From positions 168,208,001 through 168,272,000 of the forward strand of contig NC_086097.1 of the NCBI RefSeq assembly GCF_963921235.1: DNA of 64,000 bases, in the 5' to 3' direction. The stretch comes from Mobula hypostoma. Its lineage: Eukaryota. The notes under the pieces were generated by a model. That model ran no database searches. It was not told where the DNA came from and worked only from the letters and a program-made list of their open reading frames with translations. Positions 15,232-62,065 of this stretch are shown here, one piece after another; position 1 is the first letter of the stretch, and each line of letters opens with the position of its first letter. Both the position numbers and the translations under genes were made by a program.

Positions 15232-18200
15232 TTTTTTTAATACTTAATCACAATTGAAGATGTTCAAAACAATACAAAGGAAATACAACTCCAGGTGGAG
15301 CTCAGACAAAACAAATCAAGAACAAAAAAAAGGCTGCCAGACAATTTACAAGATTAAATAAATAAACTTCCAGGTAAAGAGTTGACACAATAGTGACATC
15401 ACGGAAGCAATGTAAAGTAAAATGAATAAAGAAATCCGGTTAGGCACCACTCATGAGACTAGACAGGTCAAGGTCACTATGTATGTGAAGTAATATGACA
15501 CCGAGCCAGTAAGGGTCCCCATATTCTCTCAAATGTATTCCGTGTATTGGGTTTGTGCAGACGCAGTCTTTCCACTTGTATAATAGACAACATCTCCTTG
15601 AGCCAGTGTGCGAAGGTGGGTGGAGTAGTAGACTTCCAGGTCAGAAGAATAAGTTTCTTAGCCACCACCATTCCTAGATGCAGAGCAGTCTGCATGTCGT
15701 GCGGCAAAGCAAGAGTCTCTGCAGAGCATCCAAAGATGGCGAGGTTGTGATTGGGCTGAATGTCTCTAGAATAGACTTTGAGAGCCACTCAAAAACTGCA
15801 GTCCAAAAGTTGTATAATATCGGGCAAAACCAGAAAAGATGTGCTAGTGAGCCGTCAGCAGAGCGGCACTTATCGCATTCAGGAGAGACAGATGGGAAGA
15901 CGCGATTCAGTTTTGTTTTTGAATAATGTAATCTATGCATCACCTTGTACTGGATTAATCTGTAGCGTGAATTAATAGAACAACAGTGAACCGGGGACAT
16001 TGCCTCCTCCCAAAGTTCCGCTGATATCTCTGAGTTCAAGTCCCGGACCCAAGCTTCCCTAATAAAATCTGTAGAAACCAAAGGAGCAAAGCAATTCACA
16101 AATTTTGATATTAACTGTTTGGAGTCAGGAGGGAGCAAGAGGTTTTCAAGAAAGGGATGGGTGGTGGAAGCAGGCTCGAAGTGTGGGCACTTTTCCTTCA
16201 CGTAGTGTCTGACTTGGAGATAGCGAAAAAAATGTGAATTTGGAAGGTTAAACTTAGTGCTTAATTGTGTGAATGATTCAAACCGGCCGTCGATGTACAG
16301 ATCTAAGAAAGTTTTGGTACCCCTCTCTCTCCAGACTGCAAACACCCCGTCTAATTATCCAGGCTTGAATGAATGATTTTGACAAATGGGAGTGTGTATG
16401 GAAACACTGGGAGTTTGGTGAGCCACTTTTATCTGGTTTAATATTCGTAAAGAATTCTTTAAGGTATAGTTTTGCCGGATTAGCTTGTCTGTTGGAAAGT
16501 GGAAAGCAGGAGAGCAGGAAGTGAAGAATATTTAACAACAGAGGGTTCCAGCTGTAGAACATAGAACATAGAATAGTACAGCACAGTACAGGCCCTTTGG
16601 CCCACAATGTTGTGCCGACCCTCAAACCCTGCCTCCCATATAAGCCCCCACCTTAGATTCCTCCATATACCTGTCTAGTAGTCTCTTAAACTTCACTAGT
16701 GTACCTGCCTCCACCACTGACTCAGGCAGTGCATTCCACGCACCAACCACTCTCTGAGTAAAAAATCTTCCTCTAATATCCCCTTTGAACTTTCCACCCC
16801 TTACCTTAAAGTCATGTCCTCTTGTATTGAGCAGTGGTGCCCTGGGGAAGAGGTGCTGGCTTTCCACTCTATCTATTTCTCTTATTATCTTGTACACCTC
16901 TATCATGTCTCCTCTCATTCTCCTTCTCTCCAAAGAGTAAAGCCCTAGCTCCCTTAATCTCTGATCATAATGCATACTCTCTAAATCAGGCAGCATTCTG
17001 GTAAATCTCCTCTACCCTTTCCAATGCTTCCACATCCTTCCTATAGTGAGGTGACCAGAACTGGACACAATACTCCAAGTGTGGCCAAACCAGAGTTTTA
17101 TAGAGCTGCATCATTACATCGCGACTCTTAAACTCTATCCCTCGACTTATGAAAGCTAACACCCCACAAGCTTTCTTAACTACCCTATCCACCTGTGAGG
17201 CAACTTTCAGGGATCTGTGGACATGTACCCCGAGATCCCTCTGCTCCTCCACACTACCAAGTATCCTGCCATTTACTTTGTACTCTGCCTTGGAGTTTGT
17301 CCTTCCAAAGTGTACCACCTCACACTTCTCCGGGTTGAACTCCATCTGCCACTTCTCAGGCCACTTCTGCATCCTATCAATGTCTCTCTGCAATCTTTGA
17401 CAATCCTCTACACTATCTACAACACCACCAACGTTTGTGTCATCTGAAAACTTGCCAACCCACCCTTCTACCCCCACATCCAGATTGTTAATAAAAATCA
17501 CGAAAAGTAGAGGTTCCAGAACAGATCCTTGTGGGACACCAATAGTCACAATCCTCCAATCTGAATGTACTCCCTCCACCACCACCCTCTGCCTTCTGCA
17601 GGCAAGCCAATTCTGAATCCACCTGGCCAAACTTCCCTGGATCCCCCATGCCTTCTAACTTTCTGAATAAGCCTACCGTGTGGAACCTTGTCAAATGCCT
17701 TACTAAAATCCATATAGATCACATCCACTGCACTACTCTCATCTATATGCCTGGTCACCTCCTCAAAGAACTCTATCAGGCTTGTTAGACACGATCTGCC
17801 CTTCACAAAGCCATGCTGACTGTCCCTGATCAGACCATGATTCTCTAAATGCCTATAGATCCTATCTCTAAGAATCTTTTCCAACAGTTTTCCCACCACA
17901 GACGTAAGGCTCACTGGTCTATAATTACCCGGACTATCCCTACTACCTTTTTTGAACAAGGGAACAACATTCGCCTCCCTCCAATCCTCCGGTACCATTC
18001 CCGTGGACAACGAGGACATAAAGATCCTAGCCAGAGGCTCAGCAATCTCTTCTCTCACCTCATGGAGCAGCCTGGGGAATATTCCGTCAGGCCCCGGGGA
18101 CTTATCTGTCCTAATGTATTTTAACAATTGCAAAACCTCCTCTCCCTTAATATCAGCATGCTCCAGAACATCAACCTCACTCATATTGTCCTCACCATCA

Positions 18201-19997
18201 TCAAATTCCCTCTCATTGGTGAATACCGAAGAGAAGTATTCATTGAGGACCTCACTCACTTCCACAGCCTCCAGGCACATCTTCCCACCTTTATCTCTAA
18301 TCGGTCCTACGTTCACTCCTGTCATCCTTTTTTTCTTCACATAATTGAAGAATGCCTTGGGGTTTTCCTTTACCCTACTTGCCAAGGCCTTCTCATGCCC
18401 CCTTCTTGCTCTTCTCAGCCCCTTCTTAAGCTCCTTTCTTGCTTCCCTATATTCCTCAATAGACCCATCTGATCCTTGCTTCCTAAACCTCATGTATGCT
18501 GCCTTCTTCCACCTGACTAGATTTTCCACCTCACATGTCACCCATGGTTCCTTCACCCTACCATTCTTTATCTTCCTCACGGGGACAAATTTATCCCTAA
18601 CATCCTGCAAGAGATCTCTAAACATCAACCACATGTCCATAGTACATTTCCCTGCAAAAACATCATCCCAATTCACACCCGCAAGTTCTAGCCTTATAGC
18701 CTCATAATTTGCCTTTCCCCAATTAAAAATTTTCCTGTCCTCTTTGATTCTATCCTTTTCCATGATAATTATAAAGGCCAGGGAGCGGTTGTCACTGTCC
18801 CCCAGATGCTCACCCACTGAGAGATCTGTGACCTGACCCGGTTCATTACCTAGTACTAGATCTAGTATGGCATTCCCCCTGGTTGGCCTGTCCACATACT
18901 GTGACAGGAATCCATCCTGGACACACTTAACAAAGTCTGCCCCATCTAAACCCTTGGAACTAATCAGGTGCCAATCAATATTAGGAAAGTTAAAGTCACC
19001 CATGATAACAACCCTGTTATTTTTGCACCTTTCCAAAATCTGCCTCCCAATCTGCTCCTCTGTATCTCTGCTGCTACCAGGGGGCCTATAGAATACCCCC
19101 AGTAGAGTAACTGCTCCCTTTCTGTTCCTGACTTCCACTCATATTGACTCAAAAGAGGATCCTGCTACATTACCCACCCTTTCTGTAGCTGTAATAATAT
19201 CCCTGACCAGTAATGTCACCCCTCCTCCCCTTTTTCCGCCCTCCCCATCCCTTTTAAAGCACTGAAATCCAGGAATATTGAGAATCCATTCCTGCCCTGG
19301 TGCCAGCCATAAAGGTTTTTCTTGGGTCTCAGCACCTCCATATTTCCAGTATGTAAGAGCCCCTGGCAACTGGCATTAGGGGCCACACACACATTAAAGG
19401 TATTAAGTTGGGCAATATTGAGACCCGTGTGACTCTGTACGCGGACGACTACCTTGTCTGTCTAGCCGACCCAGCGGTCTCTATTCCTATCCTACTAGAA
19501 TATATAAATTCCTTCGGGAGTATTTCTAGCTATACCATAAACTGGGGAAAGAGCGAATTCATGCCCTTAGAGGATCAATTTACTGAACACTTCCTGAAAA
19601 AGTTGCCTTTTAGAGTAGAGAAGGACTGTTTCACCTACTTGGGGCAGGTATTGTATTTTTAACTGATTAAGAACCCAAATCATCTTTTCAAATTTAATTT
19701 TATAGAATCATTAGAAAAACTCAAAACAAATATCGAGTCCTGAAGGATACTTCCCTTGTCCGTGATTGGACGGGTAAATGCGATTAAAATGGTGAGCCTA
19801 CCCAGGTTTCTATATCTTTTTCAAAACCTGCCTATATACTTAAATACATCCTTTTTGAACTTGACTCTATCCTATTGCCCTTTGTGTGGGGCTACAAATC
19901 ACACAGGATATCAAAGGCTCACCTACACAAACCTCTTAAGAAGGGCGGTCTTGGTCTGCCAAATTTCAAACATTACTAACTCCAGGGCTCTTACATA
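15232..19997 (-). mobile_element. L1/Tx1-clade LINE, 5'-truncated with an inverted 5' segment (19368-19997 on +), interrupted by CR1
   Basis: Minus-strand L1 ORF2 C-terminus (FFRYLQVRH, QYKVMHRLHY, CDKC...HLFWFC zinc knuckle). Plus-strand RT segment (TLYADD, GRVNAIKMVSLPRFLYLFQNLP). T-tract at 15231-15238. 11-bp TSD at 15221-15231 and 19998-20008. Confidence 0.85.
16557..19308 (-). mobile_element. Young 5'-truncated CR1 LINE (APE C-terminal half + RT + 3' tail), a few frameshifts
   Basis: Long ORFs 17546-19138, 16986-17630 and 16622-16996 with MGDFNFP, LDLVL, KSPGPDGI, NYRPVSLTS, DFSKAFDKVPH, GVPQGSVL, FSDD, TRGH. (AGAACAT)n tail at 16557-16575. Confidence 0.95.
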
Positions 19998-20415
19998 ATG
20001 TTCTCCATATTTATTGCTTAATTATTTATTTTTATTTTTCCCTTTTGTATTTGCACAAATTTGTCGTTTTTTTGCACATTGTCCTTTTGGATGCATTTTT
20101 TAAAATTGATTTTATTGTGTTTCTTTGATTTCCTTCGTATGCCTGCAAGTAAACGAATATGACATATATGATAATAAATTTACTTTGAACTTTGATGTTC
20201 TAAGTGTCTCCAGCAATATGTTTCTGACTCAAGTACGAAGTTCTTCCTTTTAATTACACTGTGTTGCAAGCAGGAAGCTGGCTTCTTGGAAGTGAATGAG
20301 TCAGGATTTCCCATTATTTCGGAGTTGAAGCTGCGCTGTGGCAAGTTCGCAGTAAGGACCTGGCGAAGCAAGTGAAATTACGTTGCGAATTGTTTTCATC
20401 ACATCGTCCCAAGGT

Positions 20416-22125
20416 ATGGACGGGGATGATCCCTGCACATCCAGCCAGACTGAAACGGATCGGGACGAAACGGAGGGAGAGAATTCGCCTAGAATTAAAA
20501 TTAAAAGGAGTTCAGAAACCTCCCTGCCCTCTGGCCGCCACTTGGTTACATTCCGCAGAGGGAAGGCGGAGGCAACTCTCGCAGATAATGTCGCGGCGGC
20601 CCGAGCTTTGCAGAATATGGTCAGAACCAGCCTGGGACCCAAGGGCACCGTGAAAATGTTAGTGTCGGAGGCGGGCGACATCAAAATAACCAAGAGCGGA
20701 GGGCTTCTGCTGCGGAGCATGAGACGGCAGCAGCCCGCCGCCACCTTCATCGCCCAGACAGTACTATCCATGAGTGATAGAACTGGAGACGGCGCCACGT
20801 CCGCTGTGCTATTGGTCGGGGAGATGCTGAAGGAGGCCGAACGCTATGTCTCGCAGGGAGTCCACCCCAGGGTCATCGTGGAAGGGCTGAAAGCGGCCAA
20901 GAAGGAAGCGATCTTTTGCCTTGATGAGCTGTGGGAGGACGTGGACAAATCCATTATGCAGAAGGTGGCTCGGACCTCGATCGGCACCAAGGTCTGCGCG
21001 GAGCTGGCGGAGGTTCTAGCCGAGCCGGTGGCGACCGCGGTGAATTCAGTCTCTCAATCGAGGGAGCCTGTCGACCTGAATCGGGTGCAGCTGGTGGCGA
21101 TGGGGCACGAGATGGAGCAGGATGTCAGGCTGGTTAAGGGGATTGTCCTGGAACAAAGGGCCCGCCATCCCGACAGGAAGTGGCGAAAGGAGGATGCATT
21201 TGTCCTCGCCTTGAACGTGGCCTTGAAGCTCGCGAATCGCAAGGGCAGCTCCCGCCACTTCTGCGTGGACGCGGGGGAGAAGCAGGGGTCGGCGGAGGCG
21301 GAGTGGAGGGTAATCCGGGAGAATGTGCAGAAGATCATAGCGCTGAAGTGCGATGTGTGCGGCACCTCCAATAAAAGCTTCATTGTGGTCAACCAGAAGG
21401 GGCTGGATACAATGGCTCTTGGGGCATTTGCTAGCGAGGGGATAATGGCGCTGTTGAATGTCAAAAAGCACGACGTGGAGATGCTGCCCCTCGGCTGCGG
21501 GGGTCGGGTGGTGAGCTCCATGCAGGATCTGAGCGCAGAGTGCCTGGGGCACGCAGGGCTGGTGTACCAGGAGACCCAGGAAGCGAGCACCTACACCTTC
21601 TTCGAGCAGTGTGACGACCCCCGGTGTGTCACCCTGCTCATCAAGGACTCCAATGAGCATACTCTCGCCCAGATCAAGGAGGCCGTCTTGCATGGCATGC
21701 GGGCGGTTAAGAACAGCATCGACGACGGCAGCGCCATGCCCGGGGCCGGGGCGGTGGAGCTGCGCATCAGAAACCAGCTGGTCCACCACAGGGATACCGA
21801 GATGAAGGGCGCGGCCCTGCTGGGGTTCCAGGCTTTCGCCGACGCCATCCTGACTATCCCAAAGACGCTGGTTGAGAACGCGGGCCTTGACCCCTACGAG
21901 GTCGTGTGCAAAGCTCTAGAAGCGGAGGAGCAAACCACCATCCCCGTGGGGATTGACCTGTCCTCGGGTGAATTAGTTGATGATTGGCAGACTCCCGTCT
22001 GGGACAATAGCCTCGTCAAACACCAGCTGATACACACCAGCACTGCCATCGTCTGCAATCTTCTTTTAGTGGATGAGATTGTAGAGACAGGTAAAACACT
22101 GACGCCAGTGGATTTGGCCAGATAG
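20416..22125 (+). CDS. CCT6-like: Intronless, divergent T-complex protein 1 subunit zeta (CCT6)-like chaperonin, 569 aa (probable retrogene)
   Basis: Single uninterrupted ORF from the first in-frame ATG (20416) to TAG (22123-22125). CCT6-type segments: LGPKGTVKMLVSEAGDIK, ARTSIGTKVCAELAEVL, ARHPD, NQKGLD, CLGHAGLVY, VTLLIK, HTLAQIKEAV, AVKNSIDDG..PGAGAVE, QAFADA, VWDN..VKHQLIH, NLLLVDEI. Confidence 0.9.
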   Translation: MDGDDPCTSSQTETDRDETEGENSPRIKIKRSSETSLPSGRHLVTFRRGKAEATLADNVAAARALQNMVRTSLGPKGTVKMLVSEAGDIKITKSGGLLLRSMRRQQPAATFIAQTVLSMSDRTGDGATSAVLLVGEMLKEAERYVSQGVHPRVIVEGLKAAKKEAIFCLDELWEDVDKSIMQKVARTSIGTKVCAELAEVLAEPVATAVNSVSQSREPVDLNRVQLVAMGHEMEQDVRLVKGIVLEQRARHPDRKWRKEDAFVLALNVALKLANRKGSSRHFCVDAGEKQGSAEAEWRVIRENVQKIIALKCDVCGTSNKSFIVVNQKGLDTMALGAFASEGIMALLNVKKHDVEMLPLGCGGRVVSSMQDLSAECLGHAGLVYQETQEASTYTFFEQCDDPRCVTLLIKDSNEHTLAQIKEAVLHGMRAVKNSIDDGSAMPGAGAVELRIRNQLVHHRDTEMKGAALLGFQAFADAILTIPKTLVENAGLDPYEVVCKALEAEEQTTIPVGIDLSSGELVDDWQTPVWDNSLVKHQLIHTSTAIVCNLLLVDEIVETGKTLTPVDLAR

Positions 22126-22484
22126 TCAAAGTCGCCTTCATTGCAGTATATCGTCTCACAATTTAGACGGGGGCCATTATACCCATTGCGCTTGTGTCGG
22201 CTCAGATTGTTCCTATCATCTCCCCATGTCTCTCCTCCAGCACTGACACAAGCGTAGAAGTCAAGCATCTTGCCAGCGTTCTTTTGGGATATGGGTGGGT
22301 GGGGAAGCAAAACCTCTGGAGAATCCACACAGTGTGTAAACTCCTTACAGACAGCACCCAAAGTCAGGATCGAACCCTGGTTTCTGAAGCTGTACCACCC
22401 CAAGTGATTGATTTTACTTTTGCAACAGAGGTGGGTAGGATTTGATTAAAAGGACATAAAATAATTCAGGTGCAAGGAAGAGTA

Positions 22485-22547
22485 AATAAACATCACACAC
22501 TGTTTTGGAATGTATGGATGAGATTGAAGAAACTAAACCTGAATAAA
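22485..22547 (+). terminator. Candidate polyadenylation signals for the CCT6-like gene
   Basis: AATAAA at 22485-22490 and 22542-22547, about 360-420 nt after the stop codon. Confidence 0.4.
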
Positions 22548-23224
22548 TGCTATCAAAATGCTATCAATATGTCTCAATGTCCTTCCTAAACACCATCATT
22601 ACAGTGCATGGTAAGAGTAGTCACTGACGTGGAGTGTGGAATTGCAGCCACAGTCCCCATGATAGTACTGTGAAACTCACCGCAAGTGAAATGGCTGCAT
22701 GCAAGTTAAATGCAGAATTATGATTCTGATTGTGCACAGCCTATGTAACTAGATTAATAGTCTATAGATTTAGATTACTGTAATCGTGAAATTCCTGGAT
22801 TATTTTTAAAACCCGCTTGAACAAAAGAGGTTACTGCTCTCATCAGTTGAAATGTCCCTGTAATCATTGATCTCTCTTTAAGAAGACTATGCATTACTAA
22901 ATGACAATAAAAGGAGACTGCGTGGCCTCATAATCTAATCTAAATAATCTAAATCTTGTTGTTACATGCTCTCATTATTTATTGTTATTTATTTATATTA
23001 GTATTTGCAGTTTGTTGTCTTTTCTACTCTTGCTCTTTCATTGATCCTGCTTACAATGACTATTTGCTGAGTATACCCATAGGAAAAATAATCTCAGGGT
23101 TGTATGCAGTGACATGTATGTTCTCTGATTATGAATTTTACTTTGACTTTTGAACTTTGAAAAACCCAAATGGCTTTCTGATTTATTTTTCAATAAGGGA
23201 ATCTGCCATCCTTACCCCTTCTGG

Positions 23225-56026: not shown

Positions 56027-56083
56027 ATGCGAGAGATTGTTCACATTCAGGCGGGACAGTGCGGGAACCAGATCGGGAGCAAG
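56027..56083 (+). CDS. TUBB6: Beta-tubulin exon 1 (MREIVHIQAGQCGNQIGSK)
   Basis: ATG at 56027; GT donor at 56084; MREI autoregulation motif. Confidence 0.97.
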
Positions 56084-56394
56084 GTGGGATAAATCCCGAG
56101 CTGCTAACTTCTGTGCCGTGTCCCGGGAACGAACGCGTTCAGTATCGGGGTATTCACTGAACTTCCTCCCAAACTCTTCAAACCTGTAGCAGGGGAGAAG
56201 AAATCTCTCAAAACCACTTGTTGTTTTTGGGAGGGGCTTTAGATTTTCCGTTAGGAATTTTGGGCGATTTATACACTCTAATTCTGGAGTTGGGCCAGAC
56301 CCCGCGCCTGTCTGGTGATTAGACAGGGAGCGACTTGTCTCCATACTCACAGACTGAAATCCAATTTATTCTCTCTCTCTTTACTTTGCTGTAG

Positions 56395-56503
56395 TTTTGG
56401 GAGGTGATTAGCGACGAGCATGGCATCGATCCCGGGGGCAATTACATTGGAGACTCGCGCTTGCAACTGGAGAGAATCAACGTGTACTACAACGAAGCGA
56501 TGT
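56395..56503 (+). CDS. TUBB6: Beta-tubulin exon 2
   Basis: Pyrimidine tract and TAG acceptor; [42 protein letters not shown] donor. Confidence 0.97.
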
Positions 56504-56626
56504 GTGAGTTTCTGGTGGGGAGGGGGAATTCTTGCAACGGGTGGGGGGAGGTGGCTGGTGTTTCCGCCGGCTGTTGTCTTTCAGTATGTGACTCTCACTA
56601 ACATGGCAAATCGACTAACCTTGCAG

Positions 56627-56737
56627 CCCAGAAGTATGTTCCCAGAGCGATCCTCTTGGACTTGGAGCCGGGGACGATGGACAGTGTTCGCTCGGGGAGT
56701 TTGGGACAACTCTTCAAACCGGATAATTTCATATTTG
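56627..56737 (+). CDS. TUBB6: Beta-tubulin exon 3
   Basis: CTAAC branch-like site and TTGCAG acceptor; [42 protein letters not shown] donor. Confidence 0.97.
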
Positions 56738-58034
56738 GTGAGTCTCCTGGGTGTGTCGACCTTTTGAAGGATGCCCGCTGTCCCAGATCCTGTCGATTTC
56801 CTTTCGCTTGAAACTTGATCTGCACGAGAAGGGGTTAATATTCCGAGTGTTCGGCCTGGGCTATCCCAAAATGTAAAACAAGGCCGGCGCAGTGATGTAA
56901 GAGCTGCCAGACAAGTGCAAAATTTGCTTTCCAACAAATAATTCGCAGACCCTTTGTGTTAATGGGGTACATTGACGTTGGGCAGAGTAACGTTTCCTGC
57001 ATGTGCTGTTGTGCTGGCTTGTGATGCTATGGCTGTGTCATCTTGGAGAACCCTTGTACAGACCCTTCTCAGCTTAACAGTGACTGGGGAGCCACTAGGT
57101 TTTGAGACAGGAGTTCTTTATAACTTGCTGCAAATCAAAACTGACTTGCCAGCTCATTGACTGCTCTTCTGCCTTTGGATAGGGAGTTTTCCAATGTTTG
57201 TGTACTGTGACGCTGAAAGGCAGTCACAGGCTTTCCACAGGCTTTCTTTCCTTGTCTATATTACATTAGAAGGTTTCAACTGGGCCCTCTTGTTCTGAGA
57301 TGAATGGAGGGAGGAGAAGGTCTGTGGATTCCCTCTGATCTCACAGGTGGCTTCTCTGAGAGTGAACAGTAAAGAGGCCTGGCTGGAATAAGTCCTTTGG
57401 GAAAAAGAGCTTACTGACTAATGAAGGGCTGGGATGTCACAAAGTTGCTGCAGAGGACAGAAAAGTGAGAACATTGGGGGGATGTGTGTCTAACTGAGAT
57501 TAGGCCGGGAAACCAAACCTAGACAAGTGTCCTTCCTTGCACCATGTGTAGCAACAGCTTAGGATGGACGACAGGTTCTAGTTAACCAAAGATCCTACAT
57601 GTTATCCCTAGAGGAACTCTGTTTTGTTTAGCCGTATACATGTGTATGGGTGAATGACAATTAAACTTGAAATGGCCGATGGTGTGATCAGAACAAAAAT
57701 ATATCAAACCATTGGAGGAACTCAGTGGACCAAGAGTGTCCGGGGCCGCAAAGAGGTGGTGGGCAGCTTCAGCCGAGAGCCTACACGATGAGGTAGAATC
57801 CAGCTGTGAGTGATGGTCTTTAGTTGCCTGATCTTTCTAGGTCACTCAACACTCCGCATCCTGGAGTTCTGTTTTGGTCTGTGCACCTTCCATTACTCCA
57901 ACTTGTGGTCACCATGCTGGAGATGTGGGTAACTAAAAGTGCTTTTAAATTTGGCAGATTCAATGCAGAATGTACAACTATATTTTTATAGTTTGCTAAG
58001 AACCTAATTTAGAATCTGAGACGCAAATCATTTT

Positions 58035-58440
58035 GAACATAGAACAATACAGCCCACAACGTTTTGCTGACCTATATAAGTATACTCCATGATCGATCTA
58101 ACTCCTCCTTCCTATGTTGCCAATAGCATTCCATTTGTTTTTTTCCATCTGTGTGGCCATCTAAGAGTCTTGTAAATGTCCCTAATATATCTGCTTCTAC
58201 CACTACCCGTGGCAGTGTGTTCCAGGCACACACCACTCTCTGTGTATAAAAACCTACCTCTCACATCTCTCCTAAACTTTCCTCCACTCACTTTTAAAGG
58301 ATGTCCTATCTTATTACCCATTGCCATCCTAGGAAAAGGTGCTGGATTAGCTATGCCTCTCATAATCTTACACACCTTAATAAGTCTCCTCTCATCCTCC
58401 TTCACTCCAAAGAAAAAAGCCTAGCTTACTCAACCTTGCA
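58035..58440 (-). mobile_element. CR1 3' fragment in tubulin intron 3
   Basis: GHPLKVSGGKFRRDVRGRF peptide and CR1 UTR. Confidence 0.8.
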
Positions 58441-60744
58441 TTTTGTTAAGATTTCAAAGTAGGTTTACTGAATACAAAGTAAAGCTGAGATGAACCTTGC
58501 ATGTAATGAGGCAAAAAGAAATACATCTCTAGCATTTTGCATTTGAGTTCACGTAATGTTGCTTTTTCTCTTATCTCCCTGGGCTCTGGAAGTGCAAGCC
58601 CATTCCTGTTTTGAACACAGTATCATTGGTTAGCTGACTTCGATGGAAACAGTTTGGCTGTCATGCTCTTTGTCAGCCAGTGAGACTTTGCAGATGGTGG
58701 AGGGAGGGGTTCTGATCTGATTTACGGCAGTGGGATTGAAGTCTCAAGAGGTGGAGTCCTGTTCCTCTGCTGCCTTCAAATATAGGCATAATGTAGAAGA
58801 CAAAATGACACGATTTCAAAGAAGTGGTTCAGCTTAGATAAAATATTTCTTTTGCTTGCATTCAAGAACTGAGAGTCTTTGACCCGAGTCTGTGCAGTTT
58901 GTTTTTGAGAGAATCTAATTTTAAACACTGTCAGATATAAGTGCTCCATTTCTAACGGATCTCCCTGTTTCTGTGGAGTCATTTAGAAGAGATGTGGGAT
59001 CATCTCCAATGTACCGTACGTAAACCAGATGGCCTGAGAACTGTCTGCTTACAAGAACTTACTCTCAGAAGTCCCCCCACCCCTGCTGATCTCCAAACAG
59101 AGATAAACTCTGGATAAAGTCATCAAATTGTTGCACAGAAGGAAACCATTTGGCCCATCGGATCTATGATGTCCTCTGAGAGACAATTGTACCAGTTCTA
59201 TTCCCCTGCCTATTATTCTCTAGTGCCAGTTTAATTTGATTTAAAAGACACTGATTCAGTTTCCAGCTTTCCTGCAGATAATCAATTCCAAATTTCAACT
59301 ACTCCCGGAATTAAATGGTTTATTTCTAATATTCCTTGTGCCGTTTGCCTCAGGCTGTTACCTCTGTTCCACACACAGAAGTACATCTCCTCTTTCACAA
59401 GCAGTGCCGGAGAGTATAAGCAAGCACGTGTTCTTGGCCGGACTTCGTTCAACAAGATGATGCAGCAGCTGGATTTCTGGTCGGCCGATCGCCCTTTTGA
59501 AAAAGCTGGCTGCTAACCAGTGAGGCTGATGCAGCCAGTTTGGAATTGTTCAGCTTATTCAGCAGTGTGGCTGTAAGCTTCATTCAGCTCACACTGCAGT
59601 TTACTTTCAGGGTCACAGATAATTCGGGATGAGCTGAAAAGGCGTGTAACAACACACTGAAAGAAAACCAGCCACCAGTTCTCATTAATCCATTTGTTCC
59701 ACTGCTGGGTTGGAGTGGGTTTATTTTAAAACACGTGGTATGCATTAATTCAAGGGACATGGGCTTCATAGGACAAACCAGCATTGAATTGTACATGGAG
59801 ATACAAGAGATGCCACAATCTGGAGCAACTCATCTGCTGGAAGAACTCAGTGGAGACCCAATTCAGGGTTTTGACCTACAATGTCGCTGGTTCGTTTGCC
59901 CCCACAGATGCTGTTTGACCTACCAAGTTGCTGTAGCAGATTGTTTGTTACATTTAACTGCCCATCCCTAGATACCTTTGAGAAGGTGGTGATGAGCTAC
60001 CCTCTTTAACCACTGCAGCCCTTGGAGAGATCTCCGGTATTTTGACCCAGTGACACTGAAAGAACAGCAATATATTTCCAGGTCGGAATGGTGAGTGGCC
60101 TGTAAGGCAACTTCCATATGGTGGGAAGCAATGTTGCAAGATGAACCTCTGTTCCCACAGGGTGTTTCTGGGATCTGGAGGAATATGCTGGAAAGTGGAA
60201 GCATGGAGATGCATCAGTTGCCAGTACTGCCTCACGGCTCTAGGAATCTGGGTTCAATTCTGACCCCTGTGCACAGCTTGGGCATTCTACTTGTGACCAC
60301 ATGAGTTTTACCTGGATGTTTCTGTTGCCTCTCAGATCTCAAAAGTTTGGTGGAAAGAATATGCTTTCTGCCTTTGACAGATTTCAGGGCCTTTATGACA
60401 TCCAGTTCATTCATTCTGTTTAATGCTTTATCCTCTACCAATCTCAGCATTTTAATATTTAGAAAAGATTTTCAAAACCAACTAATAATAAAAGTCCTTA
60501 AAATGTGTAGTGATGGTTTCAAGGCAAGAGAATGTGAAGATATGTAAGGGGTACAAATGAATACTTGTTCGAGGTGATCATTAATTCCTGACTCTTTTTA
60601 CTTCTGTTCATTGTTTATATAAGATTAAAATGCAATTGACAATCTTTAAAACATGTGTTTCTTTCTGCATTATGGACTAAAAACTCCTGGAAATTTTATG
60701 TAGCAGTTCAATCAGCACTTGTGATTTTAAATGTCGATCTGTAA

Positions 60745-61845
<1,101 letters not shown>

Positions 61846-62065
61846 TATACATCCATACACTTAAATATCTTTTCCATTGCTAACAACCATCAATGGTTTT
61901 TGGATGATGAGAGTGAAGCTAATACTAACCTTTTGTTTATCATCCATTGCCTGCTTGATGTGCCTTTGCTGTAATTCCCGTGTAAGAAAACTTGAAATTT
62001 TAATAGTAGAAATAATTGGCAGTTCAACATATCTGACAATTGATCTTGAATTACAGGTAGAATTT

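Follow-up and report, generated by a model that had tools for sequence, protein, structure and literature searches.

The window analysed here, a stretch of 64,000 nucleotides from the ray Mobula hypostoma, contains a CCT6-like gene (Table 1), a single uninterrupted frame of 569 codons. It aligns in one piece, with 49.6% identity, to the canonical CCT6 of the ray (residues 15-525). The ordinary CCT6 gene of this species is spliced and lies on a different contig (C71), with six or more exons spread over about 35 kb. The window gene lacks introns where this parent has them and occupies a separate locus, and is therefore an intronless, retroposed CCT6 paralog, about 50% identical to the housekeeping gene and distinct from it; a remnant of the poly(A) tail or a target-site duplication would hardly persist in a copy this old. 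The observed/expected CpG ratio of the frame is 0.79 versus mostly 0.1-0.4 in the rest of the window, and its surroundings consist of LINE fragments. No host gene was found, the 137 frames of at least 75 amino acids elsewhere in the window yielding retroelement-type matches only, and an Rfam search of positions 10000-40000 gave no match. Near-complete LINE reverse-transcriptase frames, which we take to be of the CR1 type from their sequence, lie on the reverse strand at 16622-19138, ending 1.3 kb before the gene. On the strand of the paralog, 34 kb downstream of it, there is an ordinary beta-tubulin gene with four exons (56028-61850; best PDB match beta-3, class V-like by its motifs); beta-tubulin is a TRiC client.

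Table 1. Features of the CCT6-like gene and its flanks (positions in the window; residue numbers D59, T92, K159, D393 and similar refer to human CCT6A)
Feature	Position	Strand	Basis or remark
CCT6-like ORF	20416..22125	+	intronless, 569 aa (P0001), CpG-rich
N-terminal extension, 45 residues, common to Hypanus	20416..20550	+	alignment; predicted disordered, pLDDT <50 for residues 1-39
ACA (Thr45) where sawfish and skate copies have the start Met	20548..20550	+	alignment
LGPKG nucleotide-binding motif, intact	20632..20646	+	alignment
TKSG: D59 to Ser94, all batoid copies	20689..20700	+	alignment
P-loop GDGATS: D90 (Mg-binding) retained, T92 to Ala127	20785..20802	+	alignment
Lys192, equivalent to K159, intact	20989..20991	+	alignment
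Built-in lid (helical protrusion)	21217..21300	+	25% identity to canonical ray CCT6
His426 at catalytic D393	21691..21693	+	Cys (sawfish, skates), Gly (chimaera) or Asp (sharks) in other copies
PGAGA adenine-pocket motif, intact	21739..21753	+	alignment
Asp530, equivalent to D496, intact in every copy	22003..22005	+	alignment
ATTAAA, first poly(A)-signal-like hexamer downstream, candidate	22445..22450	+	sequence scan

The frame opens 44 codons before the ancestral start site, and because the ancestral start codon has been lost, translation would have to begin at the ATG of position 20416. A possible GT-AG intron with a pyrimidine tract at 20414-20558, the splicing of which would delete this upstream ATG, was considered and rejected, all four contigs that cover it running through unspliced. 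These single contigs, from four sequencing runs on four organisms in four studies, with RNA as the presumed source, span the ORF from end to end with no gap-size joint. The contig from the same organism as the window has no differences over 2166 bases; the unique flank at 22522-22863 is uncovered in two of the runs. One contig stops 15 bases past the ATTAAA hexamer, although neither the ends nor the levels of an RNA can be read from contigs. The gene is likely transcribed. Several studies have four runs each that contain it, and such a spread could indicate that expression is broad and not confined to the germ line; by analogy with CCT6B and CCT8L2, we infer that the paralog would be mainly a male germ-line variant.

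The encoded protein matches the group II chaperonin family Cpn60_TCP1 (PF00118) at 424.9 bits, with 489 of its 490 positions covered, and zeta is the closest of the eight CCT subunits (TIGR02347, 541.9 bits versus 244.6 for the next CCT family). This score lies below the TIGR02347 equivalog cut-off of 587.15, which counts against a role as a ring subunit; orthologues from four other groups score above it (shark 760.6, sawfish 667.9, skate 602.2, chimaera 663.5). In an AlphaFold model of the protein (pLDDT 78.3, pTM 0.75), the best structural matches are the zeta chains of TRiC (TM 0.74-0.79), in agreement with a CCT6 fold. A canonical CCT6 control modelled on the same 46 rows reached a pLDDT of 80.1 with identical weak segments, and these segments therefore say nothing against the paralog.

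The original prediction was that this protein lacks both catalytic aspartates, and the three codons on which it rested read exactly as described: AGC at 20695-20697 (TKSG), GCC at 20794-20796 (GDGATS) and CAT at 21691-21693 (EAVLHG). HMMER alignment with human CCT6A puts S94, A127 and H426 in place of D59, T92 and D393, such that the marks of canonical zeta, D59, D393 and GDGTT, appear as S94, H426 and GDGAT. No acidic residue slides into the D59 or D393 column, the neighbouring E422 pairing with D389 and not with D393. The nucleotide-binding motifs GPKG (within LGPKG), GDG and PGAG (within PGAGA) are all present, again as claimed. We take K159 to mark the nucleotide-sensing loop and D496 the ribose contact. 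Likewise, we assume from motif position that D59 and D393 of CCT6A correspond to GroEL D52 and D398, an equivalence that fits the observed column conservation. A pairwise alignment with a group I fragment from the same genome left the Asp column unaligned; the spacing from the Asp to the GG motif does agree, by eye only. According to PMC10723157, the attacking water is held in GroEL by D52 and D398.

Among the canonical-type CCT6 matches, TKDG is found in 122 of 123 (the stretch is missing from the remaining model) and D393 in 123 of 123, a conservation that argues against chance as the source of the substitutions. On our own list of 27 pocket positions, compiled after the alignment had been seen, 24 are intact in the window protein, with only D59, T92 and D393 differing; in the chimaera copy, only D59, T93 and D393 differ. 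Of 284 CCT6-invariant columns, 116 (41%) are altered in the window protein, and it keeps 43 of 52 near-universal group II positions, the other nine having changed mostly conservatively. Given that the remainder of the pocket is spared against this 41% change at invariant sites, the loss of the aspartates is targeted, or selective. Very divergent group II chaperonins lose both residues not infrequently: among 109 full-length representatives of this sort, 11 have neither Asp and 30 are without D393. Two such chaperonins unrelated to the paralog, P0150 and P0206, combine TKSG with the absence of D393, a convergent motif.

We surveyed the distribution of the paralog with two homology searches, each confined to about 8000 best-word candidates. 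It was found in Hypanus (88%, the closest protein among the candidates searched), Pristis, Leucoraja, Amblyraja, a skate-like record, five sharks and Callorhinchus; a further shark record (P0024, 380 aa), which is incomplete, was excluded from every count. In a tree of 35 rows, a branch of length 0.52 with 100/100 support splits the 12 paralog rows from all canonical CCT6. Orthology with mammalian CCT6B was rejected, CCT6B being sister to mammalian CCT6A in this tree and not grouping with the paralog. Since the paralog clade includes Callorhinchus, the paralog must predate the divergence of chimaeras from elasmobranchs some 400 million years ago. The data are compatible with an origin on the cartilaginous-fish stem (AU p=0.083), certain paralog copies carry states special to cartilaginous-fish CCT6, and the distribution suggests that the paralog is confined to cartilaginous fishes and absent from bony vertebrates.

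The expectation that orthologues share the substitutions holds for the batoids and fails for the sharks. In all six batoid copies the motif reads TKSG and position 393 is His or Cys, with neither Asp left, whereas the five full-length shark copies have TKDG, GDGTTS and RDG, and keep both; in the chimaera copy the motifs read TKEG and GDGTIS, and residue 393 is Gly (D59E, D393G). Because the shark copies retain both residues, the paralog is not inherently dead and the aspartates were lost later. Most simply, an active ancestral paralog would have lost them on two separate occasions, in batoids and in the chimaera. The loss may instead have been a single one common to the two, as the tree puts the chimaera beside the batoids. 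Comparison of this placement with one outside elasmobranchs gives AU p=0.02 for the whole protein, and 0.09 and 0.36 by partition, and the grouping may reflect long-branch pull or convergence. The idea that the parent had converted the shark copy was rejected, because shark copies join the paralogs in both the apical and the non-apical trees. The Callorhinchus protein (P0044) shares with sawfish, but not with sharks, 15 derived sites, versus 10 common to sharks and sawfish, which may be due to convergence or hidden paralogy.

The reading that we favour, and to which we give somewhat less than an even chance, is that the batoid paralog is a nucleotide-binding, non-hydrolysing CCT6 substitute with a passive, structural role in the low-ATP half of a variant TRiC ring, comparable to mammalian CCT6B and CCT8L. 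The dead chaperonin of the original prediction is upheld in part: the shared batoid loss, the kept binding motifs and the CCT6 fold agree with it, whereas the shark aspartates, the diverged lid and substrate domain, and the weak constraint do not. Without both aspartates, and with T92 also lost, no attacking water would be positioned and ATP would stay unsplit. Binding of Mg-nucleotide would persist, and the bound nucleotide would steady the equatorial domain and the ring contacts. The paralog would occupy the zeta slot between CCT3 and CCT8, with the power stroke coming from the opposite half of the ring, so that the loss would be tolerated, not necessarily selected. The diverged lid and apical domain would alter or abolish client contacts.

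Published work on TRiC bears on several of these steps. It had been proposed that the low-ATP half of the ring could tolerate such a loss, and according to PMC5413064, catalytic-Asp mutants in this half still assemble: fungal TRiC with the CCT6 Asp-to-Ala change assembles and closes with a marginal loss of ATPase, and in yeast, ATP-site mutations in CCT3, CCT6, CCT7 and CCT8 are without growth effect. In open flagellar TRiC, CCT6 and CCT8 remain ADP-loaded (bioRxiv 2024.11.19.624414), and the homo-rings of CCT6 are blocked by removal of the P-loop (bioRxiv 2021.02.24.432666). CCT6 assembly thus depends on binding and far less on turnover, and the paralog conserves just this pattern. Since hydrolysis is reported to begin at CCT3/6/8 in a kinetic study (PMC7914283), a zeta subunit unable to split ATP might slow the ring as well. 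Several observations count against a ring subunit. The CCT6 hydrolysis mutant has the weakest folding activity of the eight (PMC5413064), and the comparable CCT8L and BBS proteins are argued not to join rings (PMC2846930). Furthermore, sharks have orthologues with a complete catalytic site, all paralog copies begin without the first ten residues of CCT6, the window copy has lost the ancestral start codon, and the paralog differs between the window species and Hypanus at 60 of 522 positions versus 4 of 531 for the parent, that is, it evolves about 15 times faster.

The main alternative, which is unlikely but has appreciable weight, is a pseudoenzyme independent of the ring: a monomer, a homo-oligomer or a scaffold similar to BBS6/10/12, with a re-purposed apical surface, that would meet TRiC or cilia proteins only transiently. 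The lid is just 25% identical to the canonical one in the window protein, and its identity is 25-54% in batoids, 57% in the chimaera and 79-82% in sharks, this element having diverged mainly in rays. The apical domain evolves about twice as fast as the rest of the protein between the window species and Hypanus (29/165 versus 29/345, p=0.004), the reverse of sharks, and the N-terminal strand is truncated, with an acidic extension in its place. There is precedent as well, in CCT8L and MKKS (PMC2846930) and in the open homo-rings formed by yeast CCT6 alone (bioRxiv 2021.02.24.432666). All this is opposed by the retention of ring contacts. The stem-loop that pairs with the neighbouring subunit is the best-kept region of the window protein (74% identity to the parent), and the HP motif (H115/P116) and the C-terminal strand are kept too, which is not the case in the CCT8-like protein described below. 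Moreover, at about 50% identity to CCT6, the paralog is far above the BBS-type genes of the same genome, candidates for which are, in our reading, separate loci with long open frames on contigs C22 and C9.

Next in probability, and doubtful, is that this is a once-useful retrogene under relaxed selection, in which the Asp losses are early decay in a lineage of rays where the gene is drifting towards a pseudogene. In comparison with the closest of the relatives compared, dN/dS is about 0.60 (17 nonsynonymous and 9 synonymous changes, counted from 29 of 31 listed differences, 26 of them within the frame), a value compatible with neutrality (p=0.25). On the window's own branch it is about 1.4 (13 and 3), with several changes at conserved sites (H71Q, R264W); in addition, the myliobatiform stem branch is long (0.48), the start codon is gone and 41% of CCT6-invariant sites are altered. 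However, on the sister branch there are 4 nonsynonymous against 6 synonymous changes (p=0.016 against neutral), and the frame is open in 12 of the 12 full-length copies compared. The differences between the window and Hypanus proteins are more conservative than expected under neutrality (z 3.2-3.8) and avoid near-universal sites on either of two counts (1/52 versus 59/468, p=0.02; 6/140 versus 54/380, p=0.001), whereas under a looser definition of the core there is no avoidance of conserved sites (22/204 versus 38/316, p=0.78). The Asp loss is older than the skate-ray split, yet the remaining pocket residues have stayed. What an unselected copy looks like can be seen in the same genome in a frameshifted CCT7 retrocopy, with a CpG observed/expected ratio of 0.43 versus 0.79 in the CCT6-like gene. 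This decay control, at L024:626-2187 (G000:C2), is an intronless processed pseudogene. Taken together, these comparisons show continued purifying selection on the paralog across species and a constraint in batoids that is real but weak, and that may be fading in the window species.

It is very improbable that ATP is still split with another base (His426 or a residue of the neighbour), or that assembly errors in the ordinary CCT6 gave rise to the changes: K159 and D90 are intact and His can serve as a general base in other enzymes, but the residue is His, Cys or Gly depending on the lineage, with no substitute chemistry conserved, and the same-organism contig is identical, the orthologues share the changes and the ordinary CCT6 lies elsewhere.

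Degenerate CCT paralogs are a known kind, represented by CCT8L, MKKS, BBS10 and BBS12; what is new here is an old, zeta-derived paralog that is predicted to occur in both active and dead forms. Compared with CCT6A, the TRiC zeta subunit and product of its parent gene, the ray protein is about 50% identical and shares the three-domain fold, the GP, GDG and PGAG motifs, K159 and D496, but its gene is intronless and it differs in D59S, T92A and D393H, in the diverged lid, in the replaced N-terminal strand and in its TIGR02347 score below the cut-off. Mammalian CCT6B (zeta-2), a testis variant (PMC8176918) present within the TRiC of sperm flagella (bioRxiv 2024.11.19.624414), is likewise a second zeta paralog, but is of independent origin, keeps both aspartates and changes only about 2% of invariant sites. 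CCT8L1 and CCT8L2 are similarly intronless, retroposed and fast-evolving yet constrained, with altered hydrolysis motifs and the Gly-Pro kept, and their ESTs come mostly from testis (PMC2846930). They are, however, derived from CCT8, and are called mammal-only and predicted to be ring-less in the same source, while the CCT6-derived paralog retains more ring-contact residues. MKKS/BBS6, BBS10 and BBS12 are chaperonin-like with degenerate hydrolysis sites too, but are far more divergent, CCT8-derived and pan-vertebrate. The same functional lesion was engineered in HYD6, a TRiC with the CCT6 catalytic Asp changed to Ala, although that is one mutation in a canonical subunit, and folding is partly impaired (PMC5413064). 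Our search of the freely available literature found no paper on the ray CCT6-like gene.

TRiC has been treated as a fixed eight-subunit machine, and the need for the zeta ATPase has been probed only with laboratory mutants. One gene with a complete form in sharks and two apparently separate dead forms, in batoids and the chimaera, would constitute a natural test series for the roles of the ATPase and the lid of zeta. A genome-wide scan for the family gave 55 matches, among which there is one other intact single-frame CCT-type paralog. This gene (L002:1441-3132, G000:C12) is intronless and CpG-rich and encodes a CCT8-like protein of 563 aa with a GDGR P-loop, for which theta is the best match at 359.9 bits; the Pristis orthologue is 71% identical, and the ring-contact residues are altered. 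It resembles mammalian CCT8L, which is called mammal-only in PMC2846930, a study that did not examine sharks. CCT6 and CCT8 are ring neighbours and are the same two subunits that have testis variants in mammals, the one for CCT8 being CCT8L2 (PMC2846930). Together with the CCT8-like gene, the paralog suggests that specialisation of the low-ATP part of the ring, where CCT6 and CCT8 lie, has recurred in vertebrates.

It is conceivable, if improbable, that cartilaginous fishes independently evolved a sperm-specific TRiC in which zeta and theta are swapped for intronless variants, and that zeta in rays and chimaeras is a pseudoenzyme with a dead lid within a locked-open, structural barrel. Such a barrel could be likened to the one tethered between the radial spokes of the mammalian flagellum. 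Beyond the CCT8-like companion and the mammalian testis variants, this idea draws on the TRiC of mammalian sperm, which is tethered open via CCT3 and CCT6 and for which a mechanical role has been queried (PMC12701526), and on internal fertilisation, which is common to cartilaginous fishes and mammals and is listed for elasmobranchs in PMC11856307. According to PMC12701526, tethered TRiC was unseen in the sperm of zebrafish, eel and sea urchin. The direct prediction is a TRiC barrel in shark and ray sperm, and if the idea is true, it would provide natural evidence that flagellar TRiC is a mechanical and not a folding machine.

An HSP60-like stretch in a frame of 181 aa, seemingly several exons' worth, at L028:1501-1848 (G000:C63), is probably a decayed HSPD1 retrocopy.
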